Source: Naegleria gruberi (Eukaryota). From it: a DNA stretch of 64,000 nucleotides. Of the stretch, positions 36,507-62,526 are shown in pieces. Position 1 is the first letter of the stretch, and every line of letters begins with the position of its first letter. The position numbers and the translations under genes were made by a program. The notes beneath the pieces were generated by a model, which was not told the DNA's origin, made no database searches, and saw nothing but the letters and a program-made list of their open reading frames with translations. The stretch lies in NCBI GenBank assembly GCA_000004985.1, contig GG738897.1; one strand, 5' to 3'.

Positions 36507-36602
36507 TCATCTCTAATAGATTGATTTCATAAAAACTCAAATAAAACTTCAATTTCTCAATGCTAAACGCTGCCAATTTTTAAATTAGAAATTCAAAAAA
36601 AA

Positions 36603-37769: not shown

Positions 37770-37902
37770 ATTATTATAAACAAAATAAGATCCAATGAAG
37801 AAAATTATTTATCGTTGTTATCTTTGTGTTTTTCTTGTAATTTCTTGGTAATTGGTTCTATGGCTTGATGGAAAATCAAATTAAATTTTTTTCCAGTAAA
37901 AA

Positions 37903-39538: not shown

Positions 39539-39587
39539 ATTTGAATTTATTAAATAATTATGATGACTAACAAGTGTGTTTTGAAAG

Positions 39588-40790
39588 TCAAAGGTTAAAA
39601 TCCTCTACAATTATTGTGCAGGCAGGATCTAATGTAGAATCACTAACATGACTCAACGAAATTAGAGTTGCAGTATTAGTATTAACACTGCCAGTTAACT
39701 CTTCGTCTATTGATTGTCTATTAGAGGAATCAGTAATGCAATCAAAATTGTCTAATGAATTCTTAATCATTTGACTAGTGCATTTAGATTCTCTCCAAGT
39801 ACGGTATTCTTTAGTTTGTATAAATCTGGAAAAGGAATCAAAAAGATTTGTACAAACATCTCTTTTCAAAAATTCCAAAACTGTTTTGGAAGTTTCAACA
39901 TCAATCTTCTTTGAAAATCTTTCTCTTTCAACAAGTTTTCTACTTGAATGGGAAACATTCACCTCTTTATCACTTGAACTACTAAGAAATCTATCATGAA
40001 TTGATTTGATATGTTTACTTCTCTTACTTGATGAAATATTTGACAAGCGTTGTTCAAGTATTTCTAATTCTTTAAATAATTCAATATTTTCAGTACATAA
40101 TTGTTGTTCACAAAACTCATAAAACAATTGCATTCCACTTGGATCTCTCAAAAGTGCAATTATTTCTTGTATATTAATTGATGGATTTAAACTATTGAAA
40201 ATATCTTCGTCTTCGTTAGAGGATGAGGATAAGATTGGTGATGTTGAAACTGATGATGTTAGTGATGATTTGTTTGGTGATAATTGTAATAATCTCTTAT
40301 GTTTTGGAATGGTAGTTGAACTTGGAGAAAGTGAAACTGATTTACGGTCATTAAGTATATTTTTGCTGTTTGGCATATTGACAAGTGAAAATCTTTTTTC
40401 TTGACTGTTAGATTGATCATTAGAATGTTTGTTGGAAGAATTAATGTCGTTCGGATGACGTTGTTTCTTATCCTTTGTTGGTGTGCCCAAAGACACTGTA
40501 AATCTCTTATTAGAAGAAGCAGAAGAATTCGGTGATGATGAATTATTATTGTTGGTACTAGTAATAATACTTGATGAAGTTATTGTCAAATGTGTTGGAA
40601 GATGTGAATTGGTAAGACTCTTACGATCACCACTACCTCCAACCATCATCAAACGACCAAGACTATTTCTATTAGTAGTCGTAGATTTAGATTCATCAAT
40701 AGTGGATTCAAAATCATCGGCATATTCATTCGAATGTCCATACAGAACTGAATGACGTTTCAGGGAGGATTTCTGTTGATTATTTCCCAT
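39588..40790 (-). CDS. RGS-domain protein with N-terminal myristoylation-type MGNNQQK start and Ser-rich middle
   Basis: RGS box: EIIALLRDPSGMQLFYEFCEQQLCTENIELFKELEILEQ...HIKSIHDRFL...VNVSHSSRKLVERE...VLEFLKRDVCTNLFDSFSRFIQTKEY (pattern ..F..FL..E.S.EN..FW.A.E.F). ORF track start (MINIYTMGNN) is 6 codons upstream of the MG start at 40790. Confidence 0.6.
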   Translation of the reverse strand: MGNNQQKSSLKRHSVLYGHSNEYADDFESTIDESKSTTTNRNSLGRLMMVGGSGDRKSLTNSHLPTHLTITSSSIITSTNNNNSSSPNSSASSNKRFTVSLGTPTKDKKQRHPNDINSSNKHSNDQSNSQEKRFSLVNMPNSKNILNDRKSVSLSPSSTTIPKHKRLLQLSPNKSSLTSSVSTSPILSSSSNEDEDIFNSLNPSINIQEIIALLRDPSGMQLFYEFCEQQLCTENIELFKELEILEQRLSNISSSKRSKHIKSIHDRFLSSSSDKEVNVSHSSRKLVERERFSKKIDVETSKTVLEFLKRDVCTNLFDSFSRFIQTKEYRTWRESKCTSQMIKNSLDNFDCITDSSNRQSIDEELTGSVNTNTATLISLSHVSDSTLDPACTIIVEDFNL

Positions 40791-41217
40791 TGTATATATA
40801 TTGATCAAAATTGTTTTAAAGGTATGTAGTTGATGCAGATGATTGAATCCAACTCCTAACGACTGAGATCTTGAATATCACACAACACTTCGTTTCTTTT
40901 TTTTTCGAACGCACCATTCACCAACAGGCAATTAAATATTTGATTGATGTCCTCTTTTTTTGATGCGAAACTAAAAGGCCTTAAGGCACTCACGGTCTGT
41001 TGGTTTTTGGTGCTGATTACTCAATCATCACCTTAATTGGCACAAATTGTTTGTCATTTCTTAGATTACCATCTTTGAAATTAAGACACTCTCTGAATTT
41101 GTTTCTTTTCATTATACCCTCAATAATTTTTCAATGTAGTAATTAGTTTGGCAAGATTAAACACGAATGTGAAAATGTCTTTTTCTTTTTAACTTTTTTA
41201 TTCGTGAATTTGATATC

Positions 41218-42819
41218 TTACATCAGCTCATCTTTAATGATATGAACGATGGATTGAATCCACGAATTCAAAATTTGAGGAAGTGTTATTGAGGAATGTA
41301 AATTCTGAAAAGGTATATTATCAATACTTTTTCCAATACCAAACAATGCTTTACCTCCAATTAAATTATTAAAATATCTTCGTATATTTACAAATAAACT
41401 ATTCTTTTCTGTTGCATAATTATTTTTAAATGTTATCGAACATGGAAGAATATTTAAATCCTCTACAAGTACATCAATATTTAAATTTGGGAGTGTTATA
41501 GTTCCCTTTTCTCTTGGATGTACAATAAATATTACTGTATATACTGTATCAGATTGTTTTTCTACCTTAATTAGAGGTAGATCTACAATGTTACATGTTA
41601 GAGAGGGTAATTCATCCAATTTTACCTCATTTATCAAACTTCGTTTTATAATATCTATAGCTGCAAGTCTCTTTTTAGGATTTGGTGGTAAATTCAGTAT
41701 AGTATCTCTCTTCTTAGTCGAGGGTATTAAATCAAAACAATTTAAATCTCCTACAATTGAATTTGATGAAATTAAATATGAAAATCCTAAATTTTCAGTC
41801 AATATTTCAATACCAGCTTGAAGTTCCTTTTCTGGTAATTTCAGAATATCAAAATCTTGATCAAATTGAATTTTAAATTTCTTCTTTAAACCTTCTTTCA
41901 GAGAAGAAATAAATTTCATATGACCCTCGTTAGGTTTAAAAGTAGTTTTTTTTTCAGGAGTATTAAACAAATTGAGTAAAAATTCTAAATGTTTGGCATT
42001 TTCATTTTGTTTTGTACAGTCAATAGTTAATTTTTCATATTCATTCGATCCTTTTGGAAATTTATCCAATTTTAATTTACTTTCCTCAAGCCTTTTTTGT
42101 AAGGGTGTCAAAACTTCTGCTCTAATAAAATCTGCATGTTTTTTCAATTGTTCATAAACTTTCCAATATACAGCTGTAAAATCCTCGGTGCTATTATTTT
42201 GTAAATTATTGGAAGCAATATTACTCGTTCCAATATTAGATTTAGTATTAATACAATCAAACAATTCCTTTTGAATATTTTCTAATGTATAAGATGCTGG
42301 TTTATAATTTGTAAATATCAATTTTGCTATTGAACTTAGAAATACTTCTTTTGAAGAAGCCTTTTTCCAACCATCCACAATTTTCTCTAAAAAGTCCTTA
42401 TTATCTTCTTGTGTAATATTAGCAATTTTAGATGCCAATGAAAATAATTCCTTTCTCTTCTCTCTATTAATTTCATCCCTCCATGAAGGTTCCGATGGTG
42501 CCTGTTGTTGTTGTTGTTGATGTGCTGATGTTATTTGATGTTGTTGTTGTTGTTGTTGTTGTAGCAGTGGATTAATACTACCTCCTGTAAGTATTTTAAC
42601 AGGTTGTTTGTTATTCTTGAGTAACGACATCGGAGCAGTCCCACCTAATGGTAAGCCAATATTTGATGTCATAATATTCGGTGGAACACCAGCAACTAAA
42701 GTAGAAGAAGGAACCTTCGAAGTCATTGTCTGTATCGATGATGATAAAGGCTTGTTCGAGGTTGTTAAACCACCACCACCAGCTGCCGATGAAGAGGGTT
42801 TCATTTTTTCATCGAACAA
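41218..42819 (-). CDS. Hypothetical Gln-rich (poly-Q) nuclear-type protein, 533 aa
   Basis: Uninterrupted ORF with ATG; QQQQQQHQITSAHQQQQQQ tract encoded by (CAA/CAG)n at about 42480-42570. Structured C-terminal 300 aa without recognisable motif. Confidence 0.4.
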   Translation of the reverse strand: MFDEKMKPSSSAAGGGGLTTSNKPLSSSIQTMTSKVPSSTLVAGVPPNIMTSNIGLPLGGTAPMSLLKNNKQPVKILTGGSINPLLQQQQQQQHQITSAHQQQQQQAPSEPSWRDEINREKRKELFSLASKIANITQEDNKDFLEKIVDGWKKASSKEVFLSSIAKLIFTNYKPASYTLENIQKELFDCINTKSNIGTSNIASNNLQNNSTEDFTAVYWKVYEQLKKHADFIRAEVLTPLQKRLEESKLKLDKFPKGSNEYEKLTIDCTKQNENAKHLEFLLNLFNTPEKKTTFKPNEGHMKFISSLKEGLKKKFKIQFDQDFDILKLPEKELQAGIEILTENLGFSYLISSNSIVGDLNCFDLIPSTKKRDTILNLPPNPKKRLAAIDIIKRSLINEVKLDELPSLTCNIVDLPLIKVEKQSDTVYTVIFIVHPREKGTITLPNLNIDVLVEDLNILPCSITFKNNYATEKNSLFVNIRRYFNNLIGGKALFGIGKSIDNIPFQNLHSSITLPQILNSWIQSIVHIIKDELM

Positions 42820-43257
42820 ATTTCAATGATAATTATTATTACGGAAAGTTATTTTGTTTTGGCTGCAATGTATTTCACTGTGGTGGAAGTTTTTTAGAGT
42901 GTGATGAGTCATCAAGGAAGATCACGTTATGTTCTTTAAAGTATCCTCCTGTGAATGTTAACAAACTCATTCAAGTGAAGGACAATTTTGGTGGGTGCGT
43001 AGTTTGGAAATTTTGAGAGACAATTTCAAAATTGAGATTCCATGCTTGCTTTTTGATTGCATCCCTTCCCCCTGAGACAAACCAAAAGATATATGTAAAT
43101 CATTGATGAAGAGAATATATGATATTCTGGATTGGAAAATTAGATTATCAGAATGATGGTGATGATAATTAAACATAATAAAAAATGTCTGGAGTGGTAT
43201 GTGTTTATATTTGATGATACTGATGATGTTGATCACAAAATCTCTTAGGAAGACTAC

Positions 43258-44098
43258 ATGTTAGATATTTATGATGATGTATTAAAATCGAATGGAAATA
43301 ACAATGCGAGTGGAAATGTTGATAGCACCACCACCAGTAGTAGTAGTAGCATTAATCAACAACAATCTAATAATTTATTGTACAAAAGTAATGATCAACA
43401 GAGAAGTGGTGTAGAATATCGATCACATTCGGAAAGTGTAAATAATTATGAAGATGAGGCTGATGCCACTTCATCTATTAAAATTAGTAATTTACAATGG
43501 GTAGGTGTTTAATGATCATTCAACATTATTAATGATTAAACATTATTTAAATATATTATAGTGGACAACAGATGAATTTATGGAAAACATTTTACGAAAA
43601 TACGGAATAATTAAAAGCCTAAAATTTGAAGAAGACAAGAATAATGGAAAGAGTAGAGGAATTATAAATTGTGAATTTGAGGATAAATATCAAGCAATGA
43701 AGGCAAAGGAAGCAATGTTAGGAATGAAAATTCGTGGAAGTTTAATTCAAATAGAATATATTCAAAAAGGAGGAGCAGTACAACCAAGGTATACAAGTTC
43801 CTCTTCATTGGGAAGATCTTCTGAGAATGATCAAGAATCATCATCATCAAGGAATGATTATTATGATTCAGATAGAGATTCCAATAGAAATTCATCTGGA
43901 GGAAGAAATGATTCTGATAATAGAAAAAAGGGAAATAACAGTAGAAATGATTCTAGAAATGATTCCAGAAATGATTATTACAGATCTTTATCTAATAATT
44001 ATGATAAGAAGAGAGATCGAAATAGTAGTGGAAATGGCAATAGATCTTCCTATGAATCATCAAGAAAGTCTCCAAGAAGATACAGAGATTATAGATAA
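43258..44098 (+). CDS. RRM protein with Arg/Ser/Asp/Asn-rich (SR-like) tail, 2 exons: 43258..43500 and 43562..44098
   Basis: Intron 43501..43561 (GTAGGT..TTATAG) joins ...IKISNLQW|WTTDEFMENILRKYGIIKSLKFEEDKNNGKSRGIINCEFEDKYQAMKAKEAMLGMKIRGSLIQIEY (RNP2 ISNLQW, RNP1 SRGIINCEF). Tail RNDSRNDSRNDYYRS...SPRRYRDYR. Confidence 0.6.
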
Positions 44099-44120
44099 AA
44101 ATTTATTGAGCTATATAGGT

Positions 44121-44852
44121 TTAATCATTTCTCTTTCTCTTACCTGCCTTGTCAACAGATTCAACATTTTTATCAAAAGATTCCTTAGCTCTTTTTGTAT
44201 TGAATTTAACTTTTCTAGCTTGTTTCTTCTTATATGCATGTCCAGGATTAGGTTGAGTATTTTTCTTAACAGTTGGTTGTGGAGTTGGTGTTTTCTTATC
44301 GTTTGAAGATTGAGGAAGTGTCTTCATCTTATTCTTTAAATGTTGTTGAATAACTTGAAGAGGATTGGATTGAAAAACTGGATGATTTAAAACATTTGTA
44401 AATTGTTCAATTTCATTCTTCATTTTCTTATTCTTCTTTGCAACTTCATTCGATTCCTTTTTAGGTTTTTCTGGTTTTTTCATATCTGATGTTTCTTCAT
44501 TTTGTAAAAGTTTTGACATTGGATCAAAACTGAAAATTCCTTGTTGTTTTTGTTGTTGTTTCTTATTCTTATTCATTGATTCTTTAGTTTCCGTTATTCT
44601 TTGTAATAAACCTTTTCTTTTCTCAAATTTTTCTTGTTTTTTAAGAGTTTTTCTCTTTCTTCTTGATAATCCTCTTTCAAATTCCAAACGATCAGTTGCT
44701 GTAATATTTTCATCAATTGTTGGTTCCGATATTGTTGTTGATGTTTCATCATTAACTGTTGGTTCTTCAGCTTTTTCTACAAGTGTAGAGTGAGAAGCAT
44801 CATTACTATCTTCCACAAAACGTCTTCTCTTATTAATTGGTTGTTTAATCAT
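44121..44852 (-). CDS. Possible Slx9/FAM207-like ribosome-biogenesis protein (basic, 243 aa)
   Basis: Lys-rich protein whose C-proximal VLNHPVFQSNPLQVIQQHLKNKMK resembles the conserved Slx9/C21orf70 motif (HPAFQ.DPL.AIR.HL.N.L). Weak evidence. Confidence 0.4.
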   Translation of the reverse strand: MIKQPINKRRRFVEDSNDASHSTLVEKAEEPTVNDETSTTISEPTIDENITATDRLEFERGLSRRKRKTLKKQEKFEKRKGLLQRITETKESMNKNKKQQQKQQGIFSFDPMSKLLQNEETSDMKKPEKPKKESNEVAKKNKKMKNEIEQFTNVLNHPVFQSNPLQVIQQHLKNKMKTLPQSSNDKKTPTPQPTVKKNTQPNPGHAYKKKQARKVKFNTKRAKESFDKNVESVDKAGKRKRND

Positions 44853-45414
44853 TTTTTTTCAACTTGTTTTTTGAATTAAATATTCAATAATAATTTTATA
44901 ATATTATATTAAATATTATAAAATTATTATTACTAATAATAGTACTGGCTAGTATAATAAAAACTAGAAGAACATGAATAGCTGCTAATAATTATTACAA
45001 TATTTACATTTAGTTTAATAATTTTAAATCTTCATCATCGGGAGCGAAGAGTGATTTTTTCTTCCATTTATCTCTTCTGGTCATATTTTCTGATAATTTT
45101 AAATTATGATCATATTCCCACTTCGGAACATGAGGTATTTTGAATTTTCTTAAAATGTAATAAAATACAATTTCACCAGATCGACTGTATTAACACATTT
45201 TAAATATTATTAAATTAATTATAATAAAACAACATACAATAAAAACCATCCCCAAATTAAAGTATTAAAAATAAATTTTGGAATGTCCAAAGATGATGAG
45301 GACGAATCTCTTACCATAAGAGAAGACATTTTTTACAATTTGAATTTAATCAATTATTAATTTTGAATTGTAAAAATGATTAAGAGAAATTTACTTGAGG
45401 ATGATATTGGAATT

Positions 45415-47069
45415 CTACAGCTGAGTTATTGTAACATTATGTGAAGGTTTAATCCAAGAAGGACTATGATCATAGGTTCCTGGACCAATGTGTGGTGATT
45501 CAAATCTAGATATTGGAGCTGTCTGTACACGTGTATTCTTTGATAAATCAATTCCTTTTGGTTTCTTATCTGTAAATGAGGGTGGTAAATAATTCGGTCC
45601 AACAATTGCTGCTCTATCTCTTGGTAATTTCTCTGTAAATCTACTCGTTGTTGATGTGAACCCAGTTGTTCGTGTGGAAAATGATTTCTTTGACCAATTT
45701 TCATTTGCAATTGCATAAACTCCAACTGGAGGTGTTGTATCTTTCACTAATTTTCTTTCATTGTTATCAGAGCTTCTTGTTGTCCTGGATTGGAATGTAC
45801 TAGATCTTGCATCTGTCTTTCTTACTTGATTTAGTTTTTCAGGTACGTTATATGAACCTGGTGGAGGTGCTTTTGCTTTTTCTATATTTGTAAACCTAGC
45901 AGATGTTGAGCCAAATACACCAAAAGCACCTCTTGGTTTCTTTGTTAAATCATTTGTAAGATAATTACTATCATTGTAGCTTCCAGGTCCTGGAGGAGCA
46001 TCTTTGGATTTGTAATTAAATCTTTCAGTTTTAGCATTGAATGGTCCATGAACTTTTGTACGATCACTACTAACATATTTCTCCTCAAAAACTCTAATAT
46101 ATTCACCAGGTCCAGGTGCACTTGAAAATGTACTTGAAAAATCAAAAGGCCTAGATGTTGTACTTCCAAATGGTTGGTGTTTTGTTTTGTGAGCAAGTTT
46201 TGGCTCCTTAGAATCATAAGCTCCAGGTCCTAAATTTGGTGACCTTATTTTGTCAATTGGAACAAGTGATGATCGTTGAGTCCTAGATCCAAATATCGAA
46301 CCATAACTTCTTGACATATCATTCACTTTGCTGTCATATGCTCCAGGTCCTGGATTTTTTGGAATTTTAAATATGTCTCTTGTAGTTGAACTTGTAAATA
46401 TTCCTTGTGTTTTCCTTGGTGCTGTAATTTCTTCTACAAAATATTGACCTGGTCCAATTGAATCTTGATATGTTCCTTTATATCCTCCATCTGGTGGTCT
46501 TTGTCTTATTAATTCACCACGTGGACCTTCTTCATATCCATGTGATTGTGTATTAGCTGGAATTGATGGGGCAGTTGATAGTTGTTTAGTTGGAGTTGAT
46601 GGATTTCTTGTTTTTGGAGGTGATTTACTAAACTTTTTTTCAAGGAAACTGTCAATATCCGATTTTACTTGATAACTTCCAGGTCCTTAATTCATCAATT
46701 CAACATTAAATTATTATTCATATTAAATAGAAGAAATATAGAAAAAAAATTGGTCATAATAAACCTACCTGGATTTTCCTCAATTGATGTATTTAAATCA
46801 AATCTTGTTGTTGCAGATTTAAAAACAGAGGAACGATCGGTTTTTGAGGTGAAGGCTGTTGGACTTGAATAAGTACCAGGTCCAGGAGTGAGAAACTTTT
46901 CATTGGTTGATGTTGTGTACCTCTTTTCCGTTGAGAAGAATGGTGCTGAGGCATATTTAGGCTGTTTTAAGAATGGTTCATGAGAAATGTAACTACCCGG
47001 TCCTAGTGCATCACTTGTGTTTGTTTTGGAGAGATCAAAGTCTCTTATGGATCGGCTTACCCATGCCAT
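45415..47069 (-). CDS. STPG (sperm-tail PG-rich / SHIPPO repeat) protein, 2 exons: 46769..47069 and 45415..46685 (intron 46686..46768, GTAGGT..TTAAG)
   Basis: At least 14 copies of the G-P-G-x-Y / PGPG repeat spaced about 35-40 aa apart (LGPGSYISHEP, TPGPGTYSSP, GPGSYQVKSD, IGPGQYFVEE, NPGPGAYDSK, PNLGPGAYDSKEP, APGPGEYIRVF, PPGPGSYNDSNY, PPPGSYNVPEK, HIGPGTYDHSP). The second exon extends well upstream of the ORF-track start at 46326. Confidence 0.65.
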
Positions 47070-48599: not shown

Positions 48600-49619
48600 A
48601 TGTTTAAACTTGCATTTCCAATACGAGTTACCAAATTATACATGGTGATGATGATCATCATTTCCATCTCTATATTATTCATCATTATATTTACACTTTA
48701 CAATAAAAACATACAGAATAATCATGGAAAATCTACACAAGTAGAACATATATTACATGAATCATTATATCATCGGAATGATGGATTTCCATATATTCCT
48801 TATCAGATGGGAAATAATCAACTCATTCCACGAATAATTCATCAAACATTTAAAAGTCAAACTAGAAATGAAATGACAAGTGGCATGCAAAATGCAAGTA
48901 AAAGTTATGAATCCAATTCAAAATTTAAATATATTTATTATAATGATGATGCAGTTTTACAATTTTTAATTGATAATTATGGAGAAAATTCTGATGAATT
49001 TCATGCATTTAATAATTTAATTCCATTTGCATATAAAATTGATTTTTGGAGATTGGCAGTTTTATATAAAATTGGAGGTTATTATTCAGATATTGATTCA
49101 ATTTTATTAAAAGATTTAGATAAGTGGATTGAAAATAATGCAACAATGGTATTACCTGTTGGATATGCTTCATTTGCTTGGTTTGGATTTGAATTTGCAT
49201 TCATTGGAAGTATTCCTCATCATCCATTATTGAGAATTGCTATGGATATGATTATTTATAATGTGAAAAATAAGTATATTCCAGAAGTTCCTAGAAAATT
49301 ACATGAACTTGATTTATTTCTTAAATTTGTTACAATTTCAGGACCTGTTCTTATGGGAAAAGCTTTTAATAGATATATGAATGAACCTGATGAAGCTCCT
49401 CATAATATTGTAAAGGGAAGAAGAGAAGGTTTTCAATTTCTTGGATTTTGTGATAATGGTATAAAATATTTTACAACAATTCCACATCAGAGAGATTATA
49501 GAGAATGTAGAGGTGAAATTGTCATACAATTCAGATATGAGGAATATCGTCAAGAGAGGAGGAAATCTTATAAACCATATTGGGCAAGTTTTAAGGAAGG
49601 TAACATTTTTAAAACTTAG
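48600..49619 (+). CDS. GT32-family glycosyltransferase (Och1 / Sur1-Csg1 / alpha-1,6-mannosyltransferase-like) with N-terminal signal-anchor
   Basis: Signal-anchor MVMMIIISISILFIIIFTLY; IPRIIHQTFKS (GT32 IP.IIHQ.W motif); DXD-type YYSDIDSILLKDL; WRLAVLYKIGGYYSD. Confidence 0.7.
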   Translation: MFKLAFPIRVTKLYMVMMIIISISILFIIIFTLYNKNIQNNHGKSTQVEHILHESLYHRNDGFPYIPYQMGNNQLIPRIIHQTFKSQTRNEMTSGMQNASKSYESNSKFKYIYYNDDAVLQFLIDNYGENSDEFHAFNNLIPFAYKIDFWRLAVLYKIGGYYSDIDSILLKDLDKWIENNATMVLPVGYASFAWFGFEFAFIGSIPHHPLLRIAMDMIIYNVKNKYIPEVPRKLHELDLFLKFVTISGPVLMGKAFNRYMNEPDEAPHNIVKGRREGFQFLGFCDNGIKYFTTIPHQRDYRECRGEIVIQFRYEEYRQERRKSYKPYWASFKEGNIFKT

Positions 49620-49921
49620 AAAAAAGTTGTAATGCACTAACACAGAAACGAGATTAATGTTGTCGATTAATAAACGAGAAGAAATCAAAGATTTTAGGTA
49701 AAATCTAATTGATTGTGTCATTCAGCTATTTAAAAATGATCTATTAGATGAAGAGATGGTCATTGCATGAGGTAGAACATGAAATTGTTGTCTTGATTTT
49801 TAAATTAAGGGCTTCAAAGTTTTTTGATTTGTTCACAAGAGGTCAGATAGAAAGATCGAAACAATAGTGTTATTTATTCGAATTAATTTAGGGTATTTAT
49901 TTATTTTAGACATAGAGAAAA

Positions 49922-52900
49922 TCAAATAAAACTTTGATTTGATTTTGTTGGAGATGAAGAAGGTGAAGAATTAGTTGATAATTGTTTTAAATTTTTCAAT
50001 CTTGGACTATTTGGACTTGAATTTCCATTTAAATTATTATTGGTAAAAGGTGATTCTAATGAAATATTTCCATTTATAGTATTATTATTAACAATTGAAC
50101 AAATATTTGGAATTGGTAAATTAATATTTCCACTATTTAATTTAATTAAAGAATATTGTTGTAATTTTTTAATAATATTTACATAAGAATTATTTAAATC
50201 ACCATTTAAAAGTAATAAAATAATAAAAAATAAATCATCTGAATATTGAATTAAAGGTTTTTTAAATTTAAATGTTAAAAATGTTTTTAATTGATTAACA
50301 TCAATATTTGTATTAATTAAATCCTTATTTGGATTAATTTCCAAAATTAGAAGTTGTAATAAAATAAATCCAATACATTTTATATCTTTTTTAAAATAAT
50401 CATTTTGATTTTGATTTAAAAGTTCATTCATATTTTCATATTGAATTTGTTCAAATACTAAATTTGTATCGTGATGTTTTTTTAACATTGAATTAATTCT
50501 TTGTTTTAAAATTCTATTTTGGTTTTGAATTTCTAAATTTGTAAAATCTTGTAAATATTCAATTCCACTTAAAATTATTTCAAAATCTTTTTCATTAAAA
50601 AGTAAAGTTTCTAAATTTAAATGATTATGTACTTGTTGCCTTTTATGGAGATATTGAATAACTTCAATTAATTGTTTTCCTATTTTGTAAATTTCAATTT
50701 CTTCAAATAATATTGTTTGATTTTGTAAAAATTGTTGAAATGTTGGATAATAGTTTGTAACATAATAATAATTATCATTAAAATAAAATTCTTCTATTTT
50801 TGATTGTAAATATTTATGTTTAAATATATTATATTTAGAAATCTAATTAAATTAAATATAAAAATATAAAATAAATATTAAATTAAATATTAAATTAAAT
50901 TAAAATATATTATAAACATACCATATTTGTAAATTCTGATAAAGTATTAAATTTACTAATAAATGAAATTTCTAATTTTTGTAAATCATTTACTTTATAA
51001 ATAGTATATTGATTTAAATGTTTAATATTTTCAATAATTTTAAATCTTCCATTATAAATAAATTGATCATTAAATTTCTTTAAAAAATTAAAAATTGCCT
51101 TTTTCTTTTTTCTTGAACTTTTTAATTCTGGTAATTTTAATAAAACTTTATCAAATCTATTTAAACATTCCTTTCTAGCATTACTATCATCTAAATGATT
51201 TACAAAAACATTTAAAATATCAACAATTGTATCAATAGTTGGTCTTGTTAATGGATGTAATTGTAACATTGATATTACTAATCGAATTATTAATTCTGGT
51301 ATTCCATTATTTTTTAACTTGTTACAAATAATTGAATGAGTTTCATTTTCATCGGTTTTTATAGCTTCATGCATTAAAAATTTAGTTTCTTGATTTTTTA
51401 CATTTCTAATAATTTGAATTTCCAATGTTAATAATTCATAAAATACACATCCCAATGAAAATATATCTATTATTATTATTATTATTATTATTATTGGTAT
51501 GAATTAGTATGAATTAGTATCATGATGATGATGATGATATTAAGGTGATGATAAATCCAATTAAATGTTATTAAAATATTAAATATATTAAAATATTAAA
51601 CATACCACTATTTTTATCAATTTTAAAATTACCAGTTGAACATTCAGGTGATAAAGTAATTGGTGTTCCTCTAAAACTAATTGTATTTAAATCATTTGTT
51701 GAAGTTAATAAACCAAAATCACCAATTGCAACTTCTTCCATATTTAGAGTTGAAGAATAATTAATTAAAATATTTTCATTTTTTAAATCTCTATAAATTA
51801 AATTATTAAAATGAATTTGTTGTAAACCTAAACAAATTTGTAATAAAATATTTAACCAATTTGGAACTGTTTTTAAATTTCTTAATTTTGAATTTGTAAT
51901 TAATTGTTGTAATGAAGATTTATAAAAAGGCATAACAAGACAACATGAATATTCATCATTTTTCTTTTCAATTGAATAATCTAAATATGGTATTAGATTT
52001 GGATGTTTTAAATTTGAAACTTGTTCAATATTCCATTGTAATTCTTTTAATTTAATTGAATCTAAATTTTGTATTAATTTTTTAATAGCAACATCTCCAA
52101 ATTGAATTGATTTACAATGAAATACAGTTCCTTCTCCTCCACTTGCTATTTTTTTTAAAACAACATATTTACCATTACATAATGTATGTACTGTTATGGA
52201 TTTTAACCAAATTGGTTCAATTTGAATTAAATTTAAAATTAAATATTTTAATAACATTGAAATATGATTTCCTTTAGAAAATTCAGGTAATTTACCAATT
52301 ATTTGTTTACCAAATATCCACATATGTTTTAATGTATAACTAACTAATTGTATATTAAATATTTCCTTCTTTTTCTTTTTTTGATTATTCAATTTTTTTA
52401 AATCTTGTTCAATAAAACTTTTTATAGCTTCCATACTTGTTTGAAAGGCAATTTGTTCATCTTTAGATATTTTAGAATCGGGAAATTTAACCCTATCAGA
52501 TTTTACAAGTAATTTTATAGCTGCCAATATTGAACATGTTAAAATAAAGATTAAATGTGAACATGATTTTTGTGATAATAATGTATAATATCTATTCAAT
52601 TCTATATCTATATTATTACTAGTAGTAGTTGTATTATTTGTATTATTTGTATTATTTGTATTATTTGTATGAGTATTATTAGAATTATTAGAATTATTAG
52701 ATGATGAATTACCCTGATCAATAGTTGCTCTAAATGAAGTTGTAGGTAAATGTAAATTAATTTCCTCAGTGAGTGGATTATGATCATTGGAATTGAAAAA
52801 ATTATTCATACTACTTCTATTTTGATTATTTTGATTATTATTATTGAATGATTTTAAAACTCTACCAAATGTTGCAGGTGTTGGTAATTGTTTTCTATCA

Positions 52901-55366
52901 ACAAAACCAAAAGCATCAATAACTAATTTTTGTAAATCATCAAAATTATTTGGTATTTGAGTAAAGAATGGTTCATTAGAATCTTCATCAATTGAACTTA
53001 AAATTGTATCTTCTAAATATTGAATAAAAGTTTCAATTATAATTGTAATATTTTGTTCAAATGCAATCATTAGAGTATAAATTAATTCATTCAATCTTGT
53101 TGAATTTTGAAAGAAATTTGTTATATTAATATAAACAAACATGAAATCCTTATTTGATTTTAAATTTAAATGATGATTTTGTATAAAATCTTTCATTCTC
53201 TTTTTAATTAAAAATAAATAATCAAAATTTTGACCAAATTTATCAATTTGTAATTTTTGAAATTCAATTTGATTTTGTAAATAAGCATCAGAAGAAGCTT
53301 TAAAATAAAATTCAAAATATTTTAAATCATATTCACCTTGTATCATATCATATAATGAAAGTGATTGAAAATAATCTAATAATTTTTTATAATTAATTGA
53401 TTTTTCTGTAATTGAATGTAATGTAAAATAATTATCTAATAATTGAATTTTACTAAATTTATCCATTGGATATATTGCTGATTTTAATACTGTTATTACT
53501 TTACCATCACATAAAAAATCAAAATGATCAATTTTATAATAATATTGATTAAAATATTTTGTAAAAAATCTACTTTTAATATTTCCATTTATAGTAATTA
53601 TTTTACCTCTATCTGCTATAAATAAATCATTTTCTAATAATTCTGTTACATAATGTGTTAATAATATTTTAATTGGTTTATAATTTGTATATTCTCCACT
53701 ACAATATACACTTCCTGAATTACTTAAAAAGTAACAATTATTTTTAGAACATTCAATATCTATAATTGGTATATCTTGTTCTATAAAATATGTTAATTTT
53801 TCAAATTCTCCATATATATCATTAGTATGATTTAATCCAAATTTACCAAATTGATTTTCACCATATACATATATATTAAATGTTGATGTTAAAATTAAAA
53901 TACTTTTATCATGACATGAAATTTTTTTAATAAAATCTTTTTGAATATTTCTATTATTATTTAAATTATTTATATTATTTAAATTATTATTTAAATTTAT
54001 ATTATTTATATTATTATTTAAATTATTTATATTATTTAAATTAGAATTATTTAAATTAGAATTATTTAAAATTAATTGATTATTAAAATTTGGAAATGGA
54101 ATTGGTTTTGTACAAAAATTTTTAACATCTTTACATTTAATTCCAATTTCATCATCATTACAAATTCCACAAATAAATAAATCAAAATCTTTTGTAATCA
54201 TTAAAACATAATATTTTGTTAATGATGAAATTGAATGAATATTTGATGTAATAAGTGTTGGTGTTTTAATTACTTTTAATCTATTATCTGTATTACTTGT
54301 TATATCTGAATAATAATTAATTCCACATCCATATAAATTACCACTTTCTATATTATTTTAAATATTATTTATTTAATAAATATATTTAATATTATATTTA
54401 GTTCTATATTATTTTAAATATATTGTAAACATACCAGTTAAAAATAAAGTACTTTCATATAAAGTTGTAATTTTCTTAATTTTTTCACCTTTAAAATTAT
54501 TAAATTGTAATCTAGTTGGTATTTGAGTGAGAGGTTTATTATGTCCTAATCCTAATTGATAATTATTATTATTACCTGCTACCCAAATACTTTCATCCTC
54601 TTTTATTAAATATTAAATATTAAATATGATAAATATTTAAAAACATACCCATTACTATAAAAGTACAATAATTTTCAGTATAAATATTTCTAATTCTAGA
54701 AACATCAATTGAATCTCTATATTCATTCTTTACACCTAACATTATTAAATGATTTTCATACACTTCAGAGTCTTGTTGATCATCAAATTGTTGTTGATCA
54801 TCATCACCATATAATATATAATCATCATCATCAATGGCTACTAAATATTGTCCATAATTAGTATTCTCTTTAATAATACCACTATTTAATATTAATGTAC
54901 TTGATCCACTCAATTTATTTAAGTGATTAATTTTATAAAACAAATATTCTACATTAATAGTATTCTTATTGATCATATATTTACTTAGTGATGATAATGC
55001 TGATGCTGATGCTTTTATATTTTGATTAGATGATGATCCTACTCCTACTATAATATTACTACCACTATTACTACCAGGTGATGATACAGGTGAATCTATT
55101 GGTGTAGCAATTGATGATCTAAAGCCTAGTGCATTGTTATAATTACCTGAAAGGCTTGTTGATGATGATGATGGTGATATTGAAGTATCATTTTTATGAA
55201 TACTAAAATATTCTTGATCCGAAGTAAATAATTTTAATAAATTCTGAGAACTTGTAGTACTGCCACTAGATGTTGACAGTCTATTATTATTGTTATTGGT
55301 GAGAATGGATGGTGAAGAATTGGAGGGTGATAGAGAAGGTGAATTTAATGAATGTCTTGAAGACAT
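49922..55366 (-). CDS. Very large (1696 aa) RCC1-repeat + protein kinase + second kinase-like (pseudokinase?) domain protein with poly-Asn tracts, 5 exons: 54649..55366, 54435..54599, 51606..54347, 50922..51466, 49922..50842
   Basis: Introns 54600..54648 (G|GTATGT..AAAAG), 54348..54434 (GTATGT..TATAG), 51467..51605 (GTATGT..AATAG), 50843..50921 (GTATGT..AATTAG). Exon lengths sum to 5091 nt, or 1696 codons plus stop. RCC1 blades (GNNNNYQLGLGHNK, GNLYGCGINYY, YVYGENQFGKFGL). Kinase: GGEGTVFHCK..VAIKKL, HFNNLIYRDLKNENILIN, IGDFGL, GTPITLSPE, DIFSLGCVFYELL. Second degenerate kinase-like lobe (YLHKRQQVHNHLNLETLLFNE). Confidence 0.7.
52612..52700 (-). repeat. Tandem 11-mer (tattatttgta)x4 plus (attattaga)n within kinase exon 3, encoding (NNT)n / (SNN)n
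   Basis: gtattatttgtattatttgtattatttgtattatttgta at 52624-52664. Translates on the minus strand to TNNTNNTNNTNNT within ...SNNSNNSNNTHTNNTNNTNNTNNTTTTSNN. Confidence 0.8.
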
Positions 55367-55555
55367 TTTTTATACTGTCTGACACTTGGCGTTTGATTGA
55401 TCAACATTGTGGATAATTGATGGATAAAAACTCTTGAGCAGCAAAGAAAGAGCGGGAAGGTAGTTAACTTCCTTTTTTGAGTGTTAGCCACAATATTATG
55501 AATCAAATTTTGACAACAAAACAATTTAGTGTTGATTATAAATTTAAATGAATCA
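55367..55555. promoter_or_regulatory. Divergent (bidirectional) promoter spacer between the kinase gene (minus, ATG 55366) and the C5-methyltransferase gene (plus, ATG 55556)
   Basis: 189-nt spacer of moderate GC (gacacttggcgtttgattgatcaacattgtgg...agagcgggaaggtag) lying between two extremely AT-rich head-to-head genes. Confidence 0.5.
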
Positions 55556-58500
55556 ATGAGTGAATCAGAATCATCACAAGAACAAGTTGAAATTCTAGAT
55601 GATTTATCATATATACATAATTATAAAGATGATATATTATTATTAGATGAATTTTATTTATTAAATGATGAAAATGTTTACATTTCATTAACTGATAATA
55701 ATAATAAACAATCTATTTCTATATATGGAATATTATATAATAGTAATAAAATACCAAATAATTTAATTATAGATATGAATAATTTAATTCATGAAGATTT
55801 AAATATAATAATTTCAAAATTAAAATTAGAATCAAAATTTATTGGAAAATTAATTAATTTTAATATTGAATATGATAAATGTAAAAAACCAATAATTTTA
55901 TTTACTATAAATAGAAATGATAAAATATTTGAATGTGAATGTCTAAGATGTGATTCAGATTATTTTAAAATTTTTAAAAAAATTTATAATTTATCTTCAA
56001 TTACATTTTGTTTAATTTTATCTATTTTTAAATTTCCTAAACATGGAATTAATAAAATTATAAATGAATCAAATTCAATTTCAAAAGAATTTAAATTAAA
56101 TATAAATATAAATTTAGAAATAATTAAAAATAATTATAATTTTATTATTGATGAAATTCATAAATTAAATAATGAAAAAATATTTAAAAGTAAATTTATT
56201 AATGAAATTTCAAATATTTTATTTAATAATTCTGAAATGGAAGAATATTCATCAGATTCTTCAGATTCATCTGATTATGATTATAAATTAACACCTAAAA
56301 AGGAAAGAAAACAATTAAAAAGAAAAAATGAAAATTTAAATTCTAAAAAAAGAAAAAAATTTAAAGAATTTAAAAATGAATTTGAAATTGAATTTTTAAA
56401 AGATGAAAATTCTATTAAAATTAATAATGAAATTATTCAAGATGGAGAAGCAATATATTTATTTCCATATTTAGAATTATTTCCAGATTTTTTAAAAAGT
56501 AAAATTGATATAAATTATTATCCTTATTTTATTTTTCAAATTAAATTTAAAAATAATGAAATTTATGGTAAAAGATTATTTAGACATTATGATTTAGCCT
56601 TTTTAAGTTTAAAAAATAATTTAAATATTTTAACTAGAGATGTAAATGAATTATTTTTAGATGAAAATGAAATTTTAATTCCAATACAAAAATACTATAT
56701 AAGGAAATGTTATGTTTTTTATTTAATTGAAACAAATGAATTTGAATCAATTTCTAAAGATATAAGAGAACGAAGAGATATTTTTTATTGTAAACATTTA
56801 ATTAATATTAAAAATAATTTTCAAAATTTTGAATTACTAAATATAGAAAAATTATATTGTAAAAATATGTTTAATTTAATTGATAATTATTCTAAATTTA
56901 TTTTAAATAATTTAATTATTGAAAATGAAAATACAAGAAATTTATTAATTGGATTGGATTTATTTGGTGGATGTGGAGGTTTATCTTTTGGTTTATCTAA
57001 ATCTGGAATTAATATGAAATATGCAATTGATAATAATATTGATGCTATAAATAATTTTCAATTAAATTTTAAAAATTCAAATACTTTTTGTAAAGATTCA
57101 ATTAAATTTTTACAAAAAGTTAAAATTATTAATGAATTGAGAAAATTATGTANNNNNNNNNNNNNNNNNNNNNNNNNNNNNNNNNNNNNNNNNNNNNNNN
57201 NNNNNNNNNNNNNNNNNNNNNNNNNNNNNNNNNNNNNNNNNNNNNNNNNNNNNNNNNNNNNNNNNNNNNNNNNNNNNNNNNNNNNNNNNNNNNNNNNNNN
57301 NNNNNNNNNNNNNNNNNNNNNNNNNNNNNNNNNNNNNNNNNNNNNNNNNNNNNNNNNNNNNNNNNNNNNNNNNNNNNNNNNNNNNNNNNNNNNNNNNNNN
57401 NNNNNNNNNNNNNNNNNNNNNNNNNNNNNNNNNNNNNNNNNNNNNNNNNNNNNNNNNNNNNNNNNNNNNNNNNNNNNNNNNNNNNNNNNNNNNNNNNNNN
57501 NNNNNNNNNNNNNNNNNNNNNNNNNNNNNNNNNNNNNNNNNNNNNNNNNNNNNNNNNNNNNNNNNNNNNNNNNNNNNNNNNNNNNNNNNNNNNNNNNNNN
57601 NNNNNNNNNNNNNNNNNNNNNNNNNNNNNNNNNNNNNNNNNNNNNNNNNNNNNNNNNNNNNNNNNNNNNNNNNNNNNNNNNNNNNNNNNNNNNNNNNNNN
57701 NNNNNNNNNNNNNNNNNNNNNNNNNNNNNNNNNNNNNNNNNNNNNNNNNNNNNNNNNNNNNNNNNNNNNNNNNNNNNNNNNNNNNNNNNNNNNNNNNNNN
57801 NNNNNNNNNNNNNNNNNNNNNNNNNNNNNNNNNNNNNNNNNNNNNNNNNNNNNNNNNNNNNNNNNNNNNNNNNNNNNNNNNNNNNNNNNNNNNNNNNNNN
57901 NNNNNNNNNNNNNNNNNNNNNNNNNNNNNNNNNNNNNNNNNNNNNNNNNNNNNNNNNNNNNNNNNNNNNNNNNNNNNNNNNNNNNNNNNNNNNNNNNNNN
58001 NNNNNNNNNNNNNNNNNNNNNNNNNNNNNNNNNNNNNNNNNNNNNNNNNNNNNNNNNNNNNNNNNNNNNNNNNNNNNNNNNNNNNNNNNNNNNNNNNNNN
58101 NNNNNNNNNNNNNNNNNNNNNNNNNNNNNNNNNNNNNNNNNNNNNNNNNNNNNNNNNNNNNNNNNNNNNNNNNNNNNNNNNNNNNNNNNNNNNNNNNNNN
58201 NNNNNNNNNNNNNNNNNNNNNNNNNNNNNNNNNNNNNNNNNNNNNNNNNNNNNNNNNNNNNNNNNNNNNNNNNNNNNNNNNNNNNNNNNNNNNNNNNNNN
58301 NNNNNNNNNNNNNNNNNNNNNNNNNNNNNNNNNNNNNNNNNNNNNNNNNNNNNNNNNNNNNNNNNNNNNNNNNNNNNNNNNNNNNNNNNNNNNNNNNNNN
58401 NNNNNNNNNNNNNNNNNNNNNNNNNNNNNNNNNNNNNNNNNNNNNNNNNNNNNNNNNNNNNNNNNNNNNNNNNNNNNNNNNNNNNNNNNNNNNNNNNNNN

Positions 58501-59497
58501 NNNNNNNNNNNNNNNNNNNNNNNNNNNNNNNNNNNNNNNNNNNNNNNNNNNNNNNNNNNNNNNNNNNNNNNNNNNNNNNNNNNNNNNNNNNNNNNNNNNN
58601 NNNNNNNNNNNNNNNNNNNNNNNNNNNNNNNNNNNNNNNNNNNNNNNNNNNNNNNNNNNNNNNNNNNNNNNNNNNNNNNNNNNNNNNNNNNNNNNNNNNN
58701 NNNNNNNNNNNNNNNNNNNNNNNNNNNNNNNNNNNNNNNNNNNNNNNNNNNNNNNNNNNNNNNNNNNNNNNNNNNNTATATATTTATTTAATTTTATTTA
58801 ATTTTATTTATATTTATTATATATTTATTTTATATTTAATATTTAATATTTTAAAATAGAATCAAGAATATTAACAGTTAGAGAATGTACTAGAATTCAA
58901 GGATTTCCAGATACATTTATATTTGTAGATGATAAAGTACCATATTGTAAAAGTCAAAAATTAAAAGAGAAATATACTCAAATAGGAAATGCAGTACCAG
59001 TTGTATTTGGATATCAATTTGGAATTGAATTTAGAAAAGCATATTCTAAATTAAAAAATATTAATAATGATTTTAAATCAATATCAAAATTATTTGAAAC
59101 TATTTTTTTAAATGAAACTAGAGAATTTATGGAAAATAATGATTCATCTTTTATAGAATCAACTCAAATTTGGACTGTTAAAGATTTTGAAATACCAGAT
59201 GATTTAAAAGAAGGTTTTTTATTACCTTTTAGACAAGATGAATTGGATTTTCAAAAATCACAAGAATTTTTACAATATTTATCAGAACCAGTAAAAGAAA
59301 ACACTAAAATTACTACTAAAATTACTTCTAAAAAGACAATAACAACAACAACAATTAGGAATAGTAATGTTGCAGATGAGGACATTGTATCATCAACAGA
59401 TGAAGAGGAAGAATTTGGTTATACTTCTGATTTGGAAGAGGAATTAATAACAAGTTCGATGAGTGAAATTGAAGATAGTGATGATAGTACCATTTAA
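55556..59497 (+). CDS. Dnmt1/MET1-like DNA (cytosine-5)-methyltransferase with a 480-aa Lys/Asn/Ile-rich N-terminal region; exon 1 runs from 55556 into assembly gap 57153..58776, last exon 58860..59497
   Basis: Motif I LIGLDLFGGCGGLSFGLSKSGINMKYAIDNNIDAINNFQLNFKNSNTFCKDSIKFL (compare Dnmt1 LDVFSGCGGLSEGFHQAGI...[31 protein letters not shown]). After the gap and an AT-rich 3' intron end (..TTTTAAAATAG at 58859): ESRILTVRECTRIQGFPDTFIFVDDKVPYCKSQKLKEKYTQIGNAVPVVFGYQFGIEF, i.e. motifs IX (RE.AR.QGFPD.F.F) and X (R.QIGNAVPP). Motifs IV (PCQ), VI (ENV), VIII and the target-recognition domain would lie inside the N-run. ORF 59129..59497 is the acidic C-terminal tail of the same exon. Confidence 0.7.
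57153..58776. other. Assembly gap (1624 N) inside the methyltransferase gene
   Basis: Uninterrupted run of n; the flanks are in different exons of one gene. Confidence 0.99.
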
Positions 59498-59875: not shown

Positions 59876-62526
59876 GATCTATTCTTTGCTCAATGCTGGA
59901 GTTGGTAAGAGTAGATTTATTAATACAATGATTGAGGCTGATATTTTACCTTCTTCAAGTGGAAATAATCATGTTACCAAGAGTTTAATTAATCTTCAAT
60001 ATGGCAAAGATTATTCAATGGAAATTATTCTTTGCACAGATGAAGAGTTGAGAGAAAGATGTCAAGAAACACAATATCAACTCGATCCAAATTATATTAT
60101 ATTCCTAAATTATATAGTGGTATAACTCGTTTCAAAAATGCACAAAGTCTGAAAGTAATATTGAACAAAGACAATTATCCATGACCAAGGATGATATGTA
60201 TCATGTCAAATTATTTCGTATAACTGCTCCAATTCCACTATTGAAAGAACAAAAATTGGAAATTATTGATGTACCAGGTTTGTTCAGTGGTGAATACAGT
60301 TTACTTTTTAATAGATTAGCAATAGAAGCAAGTTTAATTTCAGATACCATTAATATATTTCCAAATAATTTTCGTTCTATTTTCCCAACAGACATATTTG
60401 ATATTGTTGGAAAGGTATTCTCACATCACTCTGCACAACGTTCTCCTAAAATGTTTGTTTATACTTATGGAGGAAAATATACTAGTATGAAGAATGCTTC
60501 AATAGAATTCTTAAATTCTCTTTCAGAAAAAGAGGTCACTGAAAAAGAAATAGAATTCTCTCAACTTTTAGAAGATTATTTTGATTACAAGTTTGATGAT
60601 GTACCTTTTGATAAATCAAATAGAGTCAGTGAAATTATTGGCAAGGTGGAATTTGTAGAACCAAAAGTTCAAGTTTTAGAATTTTTGAAAGATAATTTCA
60701 TGTTATATCCAATTCCAAATTTAGATTCTAAAAATCATTCAAATGAGTTAAAGTTGACTAAAAGATATTTCAAGTTGACTATAATTAGAGATAAACTCAT
60801 TAAAGCTACAAGACTAGTTGAAGAGATTAGTAGAACAGCAATTCTTTGCTTACCTAAACTTATTTCTAGCTCCAAATATCAGTCTAAAAAGCTTGATGAA
60901 TTTGTTGATGAGATAATGACAGAATGTCAAGAAATAATAGAATTCTTACTTGGTAAATTTAAAGACTAATAATTATTCAAAGAAGGAAAAAGCAGGTAAA
61001 ATTGATAAATGGTTGGGAGATAACTTTTTAACAGAAGAGTTAGAATTTAATAGTGAGTCTAAAGCTCACAACAGTATTTTAAAGCATTTAAAACTATTAG
61101 AAGACAATATTAGAACATTAGCAGAAACATATTTTGTTTCAGAATCAAGTGGAAATGATTGTGAAGATTACAAGGGTTTTAAAGCAATGGTTTTACCAAT
61201 GTTTGATGTTGAGAGTGGTGATCATGTCATTCTTGCAACAGAAACCAAAGGTGTATTGAAAGAATTATTAGGAACCTATTTAAATTCTATTAGTAGTAAC
61301 AAATATGAACCTAATTTCAATCAACATTATGCTCACTTGCATTTATTTGAAACAAATTCCAAAAAATCTCTATCTCTACCAACTAAATCTTCCTATTCAG
61401 ATATTGATGAAATGAAACAAGCAAAGTTATTTAATAATAGAGATGACGTTAATAATTGTTTTAGACATGATAAGACTATGGCTAAAATTGTTCATGAATT
61501 AATGTCAACCATTCCACTTCAATCTAATCTTATTACAATTTCTCNNNNNNNNNNNNNNNNNNNNNNNNNNNNNNNNNNNNNNNNNNNNNNNNNNNNNNNN
61601 NNNNNNNNNNNNNNNNNNNNNNNNNNNNNNNNNNNNNNNNNNNNNNNNNNNNNNNNNNNNNNNNNNNNNNNNNNNNNNNNNNNNNNNNNNNNNNNNNNNN
61701 NNNNNNNNNNNNNNNNNNNNNNNNNNNNNNNNNNNNNNNNNNNNNNNNNNNNNNNNNNNNNNNNNNNNNNNNNNNNNNNNNNNNNNNNNNNNNNNNNNNN
61801 NNNNNNNNNNNNNNNNNNNNNNNNNNNNNNNNNNNNNNNNNNNNNNNNNNNNNNNNNNNNNNNNNNNNNNNNNNNNNNNNNNNNNNNNNNNNNNNNNNNN
61901 NNNNNNNNNNNNNNNNNNNNNNNNNAATTTCTCAATATATTCTCAAGATGAACAAATCAATCTATTCCAATGAGATTGCTGAATGTGAAAACATTAAGAA
62001 TATACTCACTTCTCAAGATAAGAATCGTTGGATTTCTGATATTTCACCATTTTTAGAAAATTTAAAAATAGTTGATAATGAAATTAATTTGAGAAAAAAA
62101 CAAACATCAAATTTAGAATCAACTTTCAAATCTTCATTCTTTTCAATGAATAAGGGTAGAGTTAGTTGTTATGATGGACGTGATACTAAATCATATGGAG
62201 ATAAGATTTATTCAAGAGAGGGATTTAATTACATGATTTCCAATGGAGTGAGTGGTGTTGAAACATTTTATCTTCCATCTATGAAGGATATTTTACCAAT
62301 TCCTGACAATTTAATTATGAAGAAATATGATGAATCAAATCAAGATTTCAATTTGAAAACCTTAATGTTGAAATTCAGATGTAACATGTTATCAAATGGA
62401 GTTGGAGGTTTCTTTCATGTTGGATTTAAATTTAAAAAGAAGATACAAAGAAAACGTTGCAGAAGAACTTCAAAGAGAAAGACTAATTCAAGTTCTTCTT
62501 CTACCATCAATAAGAAGAGAAAGTAA
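59876..62526 (+). CDS. Dynamin-superfamily large GTPase, fragmented model: exon pieces 59876..60116, 60190..60952, 60993..61544 (runs into gap 61545..61925), continuing 61926..62526 with a basic C-terminus; 5' exon not found
   Basis: G1 NAGVGKSRFINTMIEADILPSSSGNNHVTKSLINLQYGKD parallels dynamin [36 protein letters not shown]. G3 EIIDVPGLFSG lies about 95 aa downstream after removing the candidate intron 60117..60189, which is the dynamin-type spacing. Frame changes at 60118-60125 and 60950-60969 are resolved by candidate introns 60117..60189 (weak GTGGTA donor) and 60953..60992 (GTAAAT..AAAAAG), or are assembly indels. ORFs 60181..60969, 60950..61951 and 61948..62526 belong to one gene. Confidence 0.45.
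61545..61925. other. Assembly gap (381 N) inside the dynamin-like GTPase gene
   Basis: Uninterrupted run of n. Confidence 0.99.

Follow-up and report, generated by a model that had tools for sequence, protein, structure and literature searches.

A five-exon gene of Naegleria gruberi predicted to join an RCC1-like propeller, a protein kinase and a pseudokinase in one polypeptide

The window analysed here is a stretch of 64,000 nucleotides (nt) from contig GG738897.1 of the Naegleria gruberi assembly GCA_000004985.1. It carries on its minus strand, between positions 49922 and 55366, a sequence which is most probably (probability about 0.85) a single nuclear N. gruberi gene of five exons, encoding a soluble signalling protein of 1,696 residues. 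In this protein an RCC1-like propeller, a lineage-specific region, a kinase and a pseudokinase would follow each other. The spliced coding sequence comprises 5,091 nt (1,696 codons); the coordinates of all features are given in Table 1.

A first-pass annotation of the window, made from the letters alone, had assembled the gene mainly from the fragments 54620..55366, 51571..54201, 50910..51455 and 49922..50488, and the list of open reading frames (ORFs) contains these fragments with exactly these limits on the minus strand. For the choice of acceptor sites, all AG dinucleotides up to 400 nt past each donor were enumerated, which gave 180 in-frame combinations free of stop codons. The adopted model uses the earliest usable acceptor at every intron, and the alternatives with longer introns would remove residues that align with the orthologues described below. 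By this enumeration the single gene with four introns, 1,696 codons, GTATGT donors and the proposed acceptor ends was reproduced. The introns had also been called AT-only; their measured guanine plus cytosine (G+C) content is 3.8–15.8%, and they are better described as AT-rich.

The donor sites are strongly uniform. On the minus strand between 49800 and 55500 the hexamer GTATGT occurs four times (54648, 54434, 51605 and 50921), each time at an ORF break. The extended donor GGTATGTTT (a 9-mer, G/GTATGTTT) is likewise present in four copies on both strands of the 64 kb, all of which are these four donors, and only 0.01 copies are expected from a shuffle of the gene region. All four introns show GT-AG boundaries, a restored open frame and colinear junctions, as spliceosomal introns do. 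At a G+C content of 19% about a tenth of random codons are stops, as estimated from the composition, and the open exon of 914 codons (exon 3) is therefore not a product of chance. Elsewhere in the window GTATGTTT was found only at 48714 and 10161 (minus strand), sites that may belong to introns of further genes on the minus strand; the copy at 48714 lies opposite a glycosyltransferase-like ORF of the plus strand (48600-49619).

Intron 3 contains (AAT)9, a 10-nt direct repeat in 2.8 copies and (ATC)5. Read on the plus strand, they correspond to the (ATT)n, the direct repeat and the (GAT)n which the first-pass annotation had placed in a 139-nt intron just before DIFSLGCVFYELL, where they were indeed found. 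This intron interrupts the codon of Asp1209 (G/AT), the first residue of DIFSLGCVFYELL. An Rfam scan of 49000-57100 gave nothing at E ≤ 0.1, and no sign of an intronic RNA was seen in this repeat-rich intron.

The splice junctions are also supported by comparison with orthologues. In a word-indexed search covering 5.8 billion proteins, only two strong matches were obtained, namely proteins of Willaertia magna (P0001, ABK040_002523; 1,551 amino acids (aa)) and Naegleria lovaniensis (P0002, C9374_010233; 1,039 aa). The Willaertia protein aligned with the model in a single BLASTP alignment from aa 141 to 1561 with 41% identity and without gaps across all four junctions. Junction 1 (FIVM/EDESIW) is gapless in comparison to P0002 (FIVMEDDSIW), junction 2 (LFLT/ESGNLYGCG) in comparison to both proteins, and junctions 3 (KIDKNS/DIFSLGCV) and 4 (EFTNM/ISKYNIFKHKYL) in comparison to P0001; the counterpart of junction 4 in the N. 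lovaniensis kinase protein P0010 reads EFTEMSSKFSLFQHKYL. The five-exon structure is thus confirmed as far as sequence signals and gapless orthologue alignments at the junctions can do so.

Furthermore, colinear orthologues were detected by tblastn in N. lovaniensis (locus L001) and in a metagenome contig of 9 kb (L002). The position of intron 1 is common to the N. gruberi gene, N. lovaniensis and the metagenome contig, and those of introns 2 and 4 are common to N. gruberi and N. lovaniensis. Intron 3 was seen only in the N. gruberi gene; N. lovaniensis and the contig have no intron at that position, and both possess an intron near aa 1338 which the N. gruberi gene lacks. Close relatives are restricted to Willaertia, N. 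lovaniensis and this one metagenome contig. The orthologue on the contig (4232-8758; ENA ERZ27315067, contig k141_1916765; 41.5% G+C) is 39–50% identical, has three introns and was broken into separate ORFs by prokaryote-style gene calling. Its source is presumably an unsequenced Naegleria-like amoeba.

The Willaertia protein, an uncharacterised hypothetical protein, is a full-length orthologue with the same order of propeller, middle region, kinase and degenerate kinase-like domain. Unlike the N. gruberi protein, it has neither the Ser-rich N-terminal extension nor the Asn-rich tail, and it carries a long low-complexity insert in the N-lobe of the kinase. In N. lovaniensis the orthologous locus, with conserved neighbours, consists of the models C9374_010233 (RCC1) and C9374_010232 (kinase, P0010). 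The C-terminus appears truncated there, and similarity to the pseudokinase runs on past the annotated stop of the kinase model (L001 12888-13082).

The first kinase domain is predicted to be active, with every catalytic residue present. It was matched by Pfam PF00069 (Pkinase) over aa 1022-1290 with 127.4 bits (cut-off 31.7; E = 8e-37). The glycine loop ASGGEGTV (G1031, G1034), K1050 of VAIK, the catalytic loop YRDLKNEN (D1148, K1150, N1153), DFG (1171-1173), SPE (1194-1196), D1209 of subdomain IX and R1283 of subdomain XI are present, and the glutamate of helix alphaC was placed at E1069 by alignment to NEK1. Except for E1069, these canonical residues occupy invariant or nearly invariant columns of an alignment of 12 kinases, which bears out the earlier description of the kinase as active-looking. 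The DLKxxN form of the catalytic loop is of the Ser/Thr type. Moreover, an Arg precedes the catalytic Asp (YRD), and the activation segment comprises 20 residues and is rich in Ser and Thr. In kinases with an Arg before the catalytic Asp, phosphorylation of the activation loop is the usual switch, and it would probably also turn this kinase on.

When the single sequence was compared to the PDB, NEK1 ranked first with 81.6 bits, followed by chains with about 60 bits. With a profile of the four orthologous kinase domains, NEK1 (109.5 bits) was closely followed by JAK (101.8), IRAK4 (95.5), CTR1 (94.4) and NEK2 (91). A firm assignment to the NEK family was considered and not established, as JAK, IRAK4 and CTR1 come near NEK1 with the family profile.

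Behind the kinase, a second degenerate kinase-like lobe had been proposed in the first-pass annotation. Its degenerate, kinase-like nature was found again, but the region corresponds to a whole domain with N- and C-lobes and not to a single lobe. The C-terminal 398 aa alone reached only 19.1 bits (E = 9e-4) with the Pfam Pkinase model, which is below the cut-off. Comparison of the four orthologous C-terminal regions with a kinase alignment by hhalign, however, gave a probability of 98.5% (E = 2e-15) over 190 columns, from beta1 to alphaF. The orthologue profile matched 821 PDB chains at E ≤ 1; the best 60 listed are all kinases (top E = 4e-8). An AlphaFold model of the Willaertia pseudokinase is of moderate to low confidence (predicted local distance difference test, pLDDT, 51; predicted template modelling score, pTM, 0.47), and its topology is kinase-like, with three strands, helix alphaC, two further strands and a helical C-lobe. 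In a Foldseek search with this low-confidence model the top matches were all kinase domains, with NEK7 first (E = 4e-5; TM score about 0.3).

The catalytic positions of this second domain are degenerate in all four orthologues. In N. gruberi the glycine loop reads ENIKHLNQY and contains no Gly. The first-pass annotation had raised the question whether the catalytic Lys and Asp are retained; both are lost, the beta3 Lys being replaced by Ser1379 (Arg in the three orthologues) and the catalytic Asp by His1464 (His, Gln and His in the three orthologues). The Lys and the Asn of the catalytic loop are replaced by Asn1466 and Thr1469, and the Asp of DFG by Glu1478 (Asp in the three orthologues). Judged from these alignments, the second domain is a complete pseudokinase with both lobes, whose catalytic loss is kept across the orthologues. 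It is followed by a tail (aa 1621-1696) which is rich in Asn and Ser, in agreement with the Asn-rich tail described earlier.

The RCC1 repeats of the first-pass annotation were detected by two Pfam models above their curated cut-offs, PF13540 RCC1_2 (38.9 bits, cut-off 22; E = 7e-10) and PF00415 RCC1 (29.0 bits, cut-off 21.7; E = 2e-6). The best RCC1 stretch, aa 243-284, lies within exon 2, whereas exon 1 encodes the Ser-rich N-terminus (aa 1-138) and the first RCC1-like blades. The whole-domain model PF25390 WD40_RLD gave 96.7 bits (E = 2e-27), under its cut-off of 150. Best relatives of the propeller in the PDB are UVR8, RPGR, RCC1L and HERC1. Counted by eye, seven to eight blade-like units of the form hhhhxxxGxhhxxG can be inferred between aa 139 and 600. 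Within the propeller, an Asn-rich insert encoded in frame by a microsatellite occupies aa 384-427 (53950-54081). In-frame coding tandem repeats extend over 53946-54090 (this propeller insert) and 52614-52701 (an Asn/Thr-rich linker before a hydrophobic segment), and the orthologues carry unrelated low-complexity inserts at similar places.

No Pfam family matched the middle region between propeller and kinase (aa ~601-1015). A phmmer search with aa 520-1020 against 1.84 billion representative proteins returned four matches, all of them orthologues (Willaertia, N. lovaniensis and two fragments of the metagenome contig). The region is probably mostly helical, according to structure modelling.

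Several points weigh against the assignment as a soluble signalling protein with this domain organisation. The start codon and the Ser-rich first ~130 residues are inferred from the open frame; the first ~130 codons are open, yet show no conservation in the orthologues. The AlphaFold model of the middle region, calculated from an alignment of four sequences, was unusable (pLDDT 38). The kinase is NEK-like at most, and its group is ambiguous. The roles proposed below for the propeller and the pseudokinase are drawn by analogy. Moreover, aa 891-909 form a conserved hydrophobic segment with the highest 19-residue Kyte-Doolittle value in all four orthologues (2.0–2.4), which could mean membrane association. 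Finally, the N. lovaniensis locus is annotated as two adjacent models on the same strand, an RCC1 model of 1,039 aa and a kinase model of 793 aa, with 117 bp between them.

The hydrophobic segment might be read as a transmembrane helix between the propeller and helical region on one side and a cytoplasmic kinase-pseudokinase pair on the other, so that the protein would be a membrane-anchored, receptor-like kinase. Besides the hydropathy maximum, the position of the segment ~110 residues N-terminal of the kinase, the variable low-complexity linker before it and the conserved basic motif K-x-DRVK after it would fit such an arrangement. The invariant columns across the segment (LAA.KLL.K.DRVK), however, include a conserved Lys inside the hydrophobic stretch, and a buried core helix of a helical domain is an equally possible explanation for aa 891-909. 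In addition, the N-termini of three orthologues are hydrophilic and have no signal-like stretch, and it is unlikely that ~890 N-terminal residues are moved across a membrane without a signal sequence. A transmembrane role of aa 891-909 is therefore possible but unlikely. If the segment did span or insert into a membrane, the protein would be a heterolobosean-specific receptor-like kinase, in which the propeller and helical region sense a signal and control the kinase-pseudokinase pair across the membrane. To our knowledge, no receptor kinase with an RCC1-propeller sensor on a built-in kinase-pseudokinase pair has been described.

The gene lies in a sharply delimited AT-rich island (49922-57152), which covers it and the divergent neighbouring gene. 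Its G+C content is 19.3%, with a third-position GC of 5.7% and a ratio of observed to expected CpG of 0.10; for the divergent DNA-methyltransferase-like ORF these values are 14.7%, 2.6% and 0.13. The remaining window (1-49900) has 31.9% G+C and a CpG ratio of 0.37, and the other ORFs in the window show third-position GC values of 14–29%. The third-position GC of the orthologues is 23.5% in N. lovaniensis and 51% on the metagenome contig. The 5' region shared by both genes of the island (55000-55499) has a normal composition (33% G+C). The island might reflect methylation-driven C-to-T decay of gene bodies. Residues encoded by AT-rich codons (Phe, Tyr, Met, Ile, Asn and Lys) are overrepresented in the protein, whose Dictyostelium-like look is due to this extreme local AT bias.

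It is likely that the gene was overlooked in the annotation of the genome. No N. gruberi protein matched it in either word-indexed search, although the same database holds N. gruberi proteins. An annotated model with even a single exon in common would rank at the top, and the deposited N. gruberi proteins thus seem to lack this gene. Exact-sequence look-ups were blank for the model and for four neighbouring proteins, and a known N. gruberi protein (P0075) was equally not retrieved. The AT bias may also have defeated gene prediction.

A different explanation for this absence would be that the gene is decaying or silent in an AT-hypermutated island. The low third-position GC and CpG ratio in comparison to the rest of the window, the shifted amino acid composition and the lack of a retrieved N. 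gruberi protein are consistent with it, as are two pseudokinase positions where N. gruberi alone deviates (Glu for Asp at DFG and Ser for Arg at beta3). Nevertheless, all 1,696 codons are open although a stop would be due at roughly every tenth codon, the first kinase has kept its full set of catalytic residues, the identical extended donors are kept at all four introns, and conservation between the orthologues peaks in the structured blocks. These features make a decaying or silent gene very unlikely.

Least probable of all is the possibility that an RCC1-repeat protein and a downstream kinase are encoded by two genes with distinct mRNAs, as annotated in N. lovaniensis, even if an internal promoter would be compatible with the sequence. 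In N. gruberi the unbroken exon 3 of 2,742 nt holds RCC1 blades as well as the kinase up to SPE, and the fusion is therefore independent of splicing. Both parts are also included in the single 1,551-aa model of Willaertia, and a single ORF of the metagenome contig spans aa 693-1338. In N. lovaniensis itself, the stretch annotated as intergenic (L001 9765-10046) is conserved as well and reads on in frame 3 with 58% identity. Nothing but a frame change near L001 9770-9790 parts the two models, and the first Met of the kinase model is an internal one, surrounded by conserved sequence. On this evidence the annotation of the N. lovaniensis orthologue as two genes is wrong and results from the frame change near 9770-9790 (PYSW02000041.1).

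Table 1. Coordinates of the N. gruberi gene, its predicted protein domains and neighbouring ORFs in the 64,000-nt window.
Feature	Position	Strand	Description
Exon 1	54649..55366	minus	718 nt; aa 1-239 + 1 nt; ATG at 55366-55364; ORF 54620..55366
Intron 1	54600..54648	minus	49 nt; GTATGTTT...AAAAG; phase 1; 8.2% G+C
Exon 2	54435..54599	minus	165 nt; aa 240-294; single RCC1 blade with WVAGNNNNYQLGLGHN
Intron 2	54348..54434	minus	87 nt; GTATGTTT...TATAG; phase 1; 6.9% G+C
Exon 3	51606..54347	minus	2,742 nt; aa 295-1208; one unbroken frame from RCC1 blades through middle region to kinase past SPE
Intron 3	51467..51605	minus	139 nt; GTATGTTT...AATAG; phase 1; 15.8% G+C
Exon 4	50922..51466	minus	545 nt; aa 1209-1390; kinase C-lobe, linker, pseudokinase N-lobe strands
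Intron 4	50843..50921	minus	79 nt; GTATGTTT...AATTAG; phase 0; 3.8% G+C
Exon 5	49922..50842	minus	921 nt; aa 1391-1696 and TGA stop (49922-49924); remaining pseudokinase and Asn/Ser-rich tail
RCC1-like propeller	53431..54952	minus	aa ~139-600; spans introns 1 and 2
Lineage-specific middle region	52186..53430	minus	aa ~601-1015; includes N/T-rich linker aa 795-875
Conserved hydrophobic segment SHLIFILTCSILAAIKLLV	52504..52560	minus	aa 891-909; followed by KSDRVK
Catalytic kinase domain (predicted)	51222..52167	minus	aa 1022-1290; spans intron 3
Pseudokinase (predicted)	50333..51053	minus	aa ~1347-1560; spans intron 4; helices go on to ~aa 1620
RhoGEF ORF	34365-36506		
RGS ORF	39588-40808		
SHIPPO-repeat ORF	45415-46326		

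The genomic neighbourhood identifies the window as heterolobosean. The ORF at 36603-37769 (TSR3, 388 aa) is identical over its full length (100%) to an N. gruberi protein, and its homologues in N. fowleri, N. lovaniensis and Willaertia show identities of 79%, 79% and 76%. The gene order matches that in N. lovaniensis, where the gene is likewise preceded by a divergent DNA-methylase-like gene and followed by one with SHIPPO repeats. The first-pass annotation had likened the protein to amoebozoan kinases. This affinity is not supported by the close relatives named above or by the TSR3 neighbour of N. gruberi, and the best solved relative of the kinase is NEK1. The region 34365-46326 is gene-dense and intron-poor, as is typical of Naegleria.

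On the other side of the gene, the divergent ORF at 55529-57152 (plus strand) contains motif I of C5 cytosine methyltransferases (DLFGGCGGLSFGL), shows a weak match to Pfam DNA_methylase (E = 2e-4) and ends at an assembly gap; DNA_methylase genes are present at the syntenic position in N. lovaniensis. Runs of N mark assembly gaps at 57153-58776 (1,624 nt) and 61545-61925. A longer ORF of 1,090 aa (55529..58801) was rejected as an artefact beyond ~57152, as it crosses the 1,624-nt block of N.

Returning to the soluble protein with its propeller, kinase and pseudokinase, a mode of action can be proposed. The active kinase would be the output of the protein. The propeller would probably act as a protein-binding, targeting or autoinhibitory module, like the RCC1 domains of NEK8 and NEK9. 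By analogy with other proteins that carry a kinase and a pseudokinase in tandem, the C-terminal pseudokinase would probably be an allosteric regulator of the adjoining kinase or a docking scaffold.

Multidomain kinases specific to one lineage are frequent among protists, and from its sequence the gene is an ordinary lineage-specific signalling gene. It belongs to a small Naegleria/Willaertia-specific family that joins an RCC1 propeller, a predicted active kinase and a conserved pseudokinase, and current understanding is not overturned by it. No description of this gene or architecture was found in the literature on Naegleria RCC1 proteins, kinases, kinome, NEK proteins and splice sites. The analysis provides a full-length spliced model for a large signalling gene that is seemingly absent from the N. 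gruberi reference proteins, and a candidate for kinome surveys of an organism which is studied for de novo assembly of basal bodies.

Among known systems, the vertebrate NIMA-related kinases NEK8 and NEK9 (Nercc1) possess an RCC1-repeat domain. Like these, the N. gruberi protein combines a Ser/Thr kinase and an RCC1-like propeller in one polypeptide, and among solved structures its kinase is nearest to NEK1, with NEK2 and NEK7 also high. The order of the domains is different: the propeller is C-terminal in NEK8 and NEK9, whereas here it is N-terminal (aa 139-600, in comparison to the kinase at 1022-1290). Unlike NEK8 and NEK9, the N. gruberi protein additionally has a pseudokinase and a lineage-specific middle region.

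A second group for comparison is formed by tandem kinase-pseudokinase proteins, such as JAK with its JH2-JH1 pair, GCN2 and plant tandem kinase proteins such as WTK1. No sequence relationship to the tandem kinase proteins was found beyond the kinase fold. The predicted active domain precedes the pseudokinase here and follows it in JAK and GCN2, and the accessory domains differ. Common to JAK, GCN2, WTK1 and the N. gruberi protein is the tandem of kinase folds, of which one is catalytically complete and the other is without key residues, a loss that is conserved here across the orthologues. The family could be a useful case for the study of pseudokinase control over neighbouring kinases outside animals and plants.

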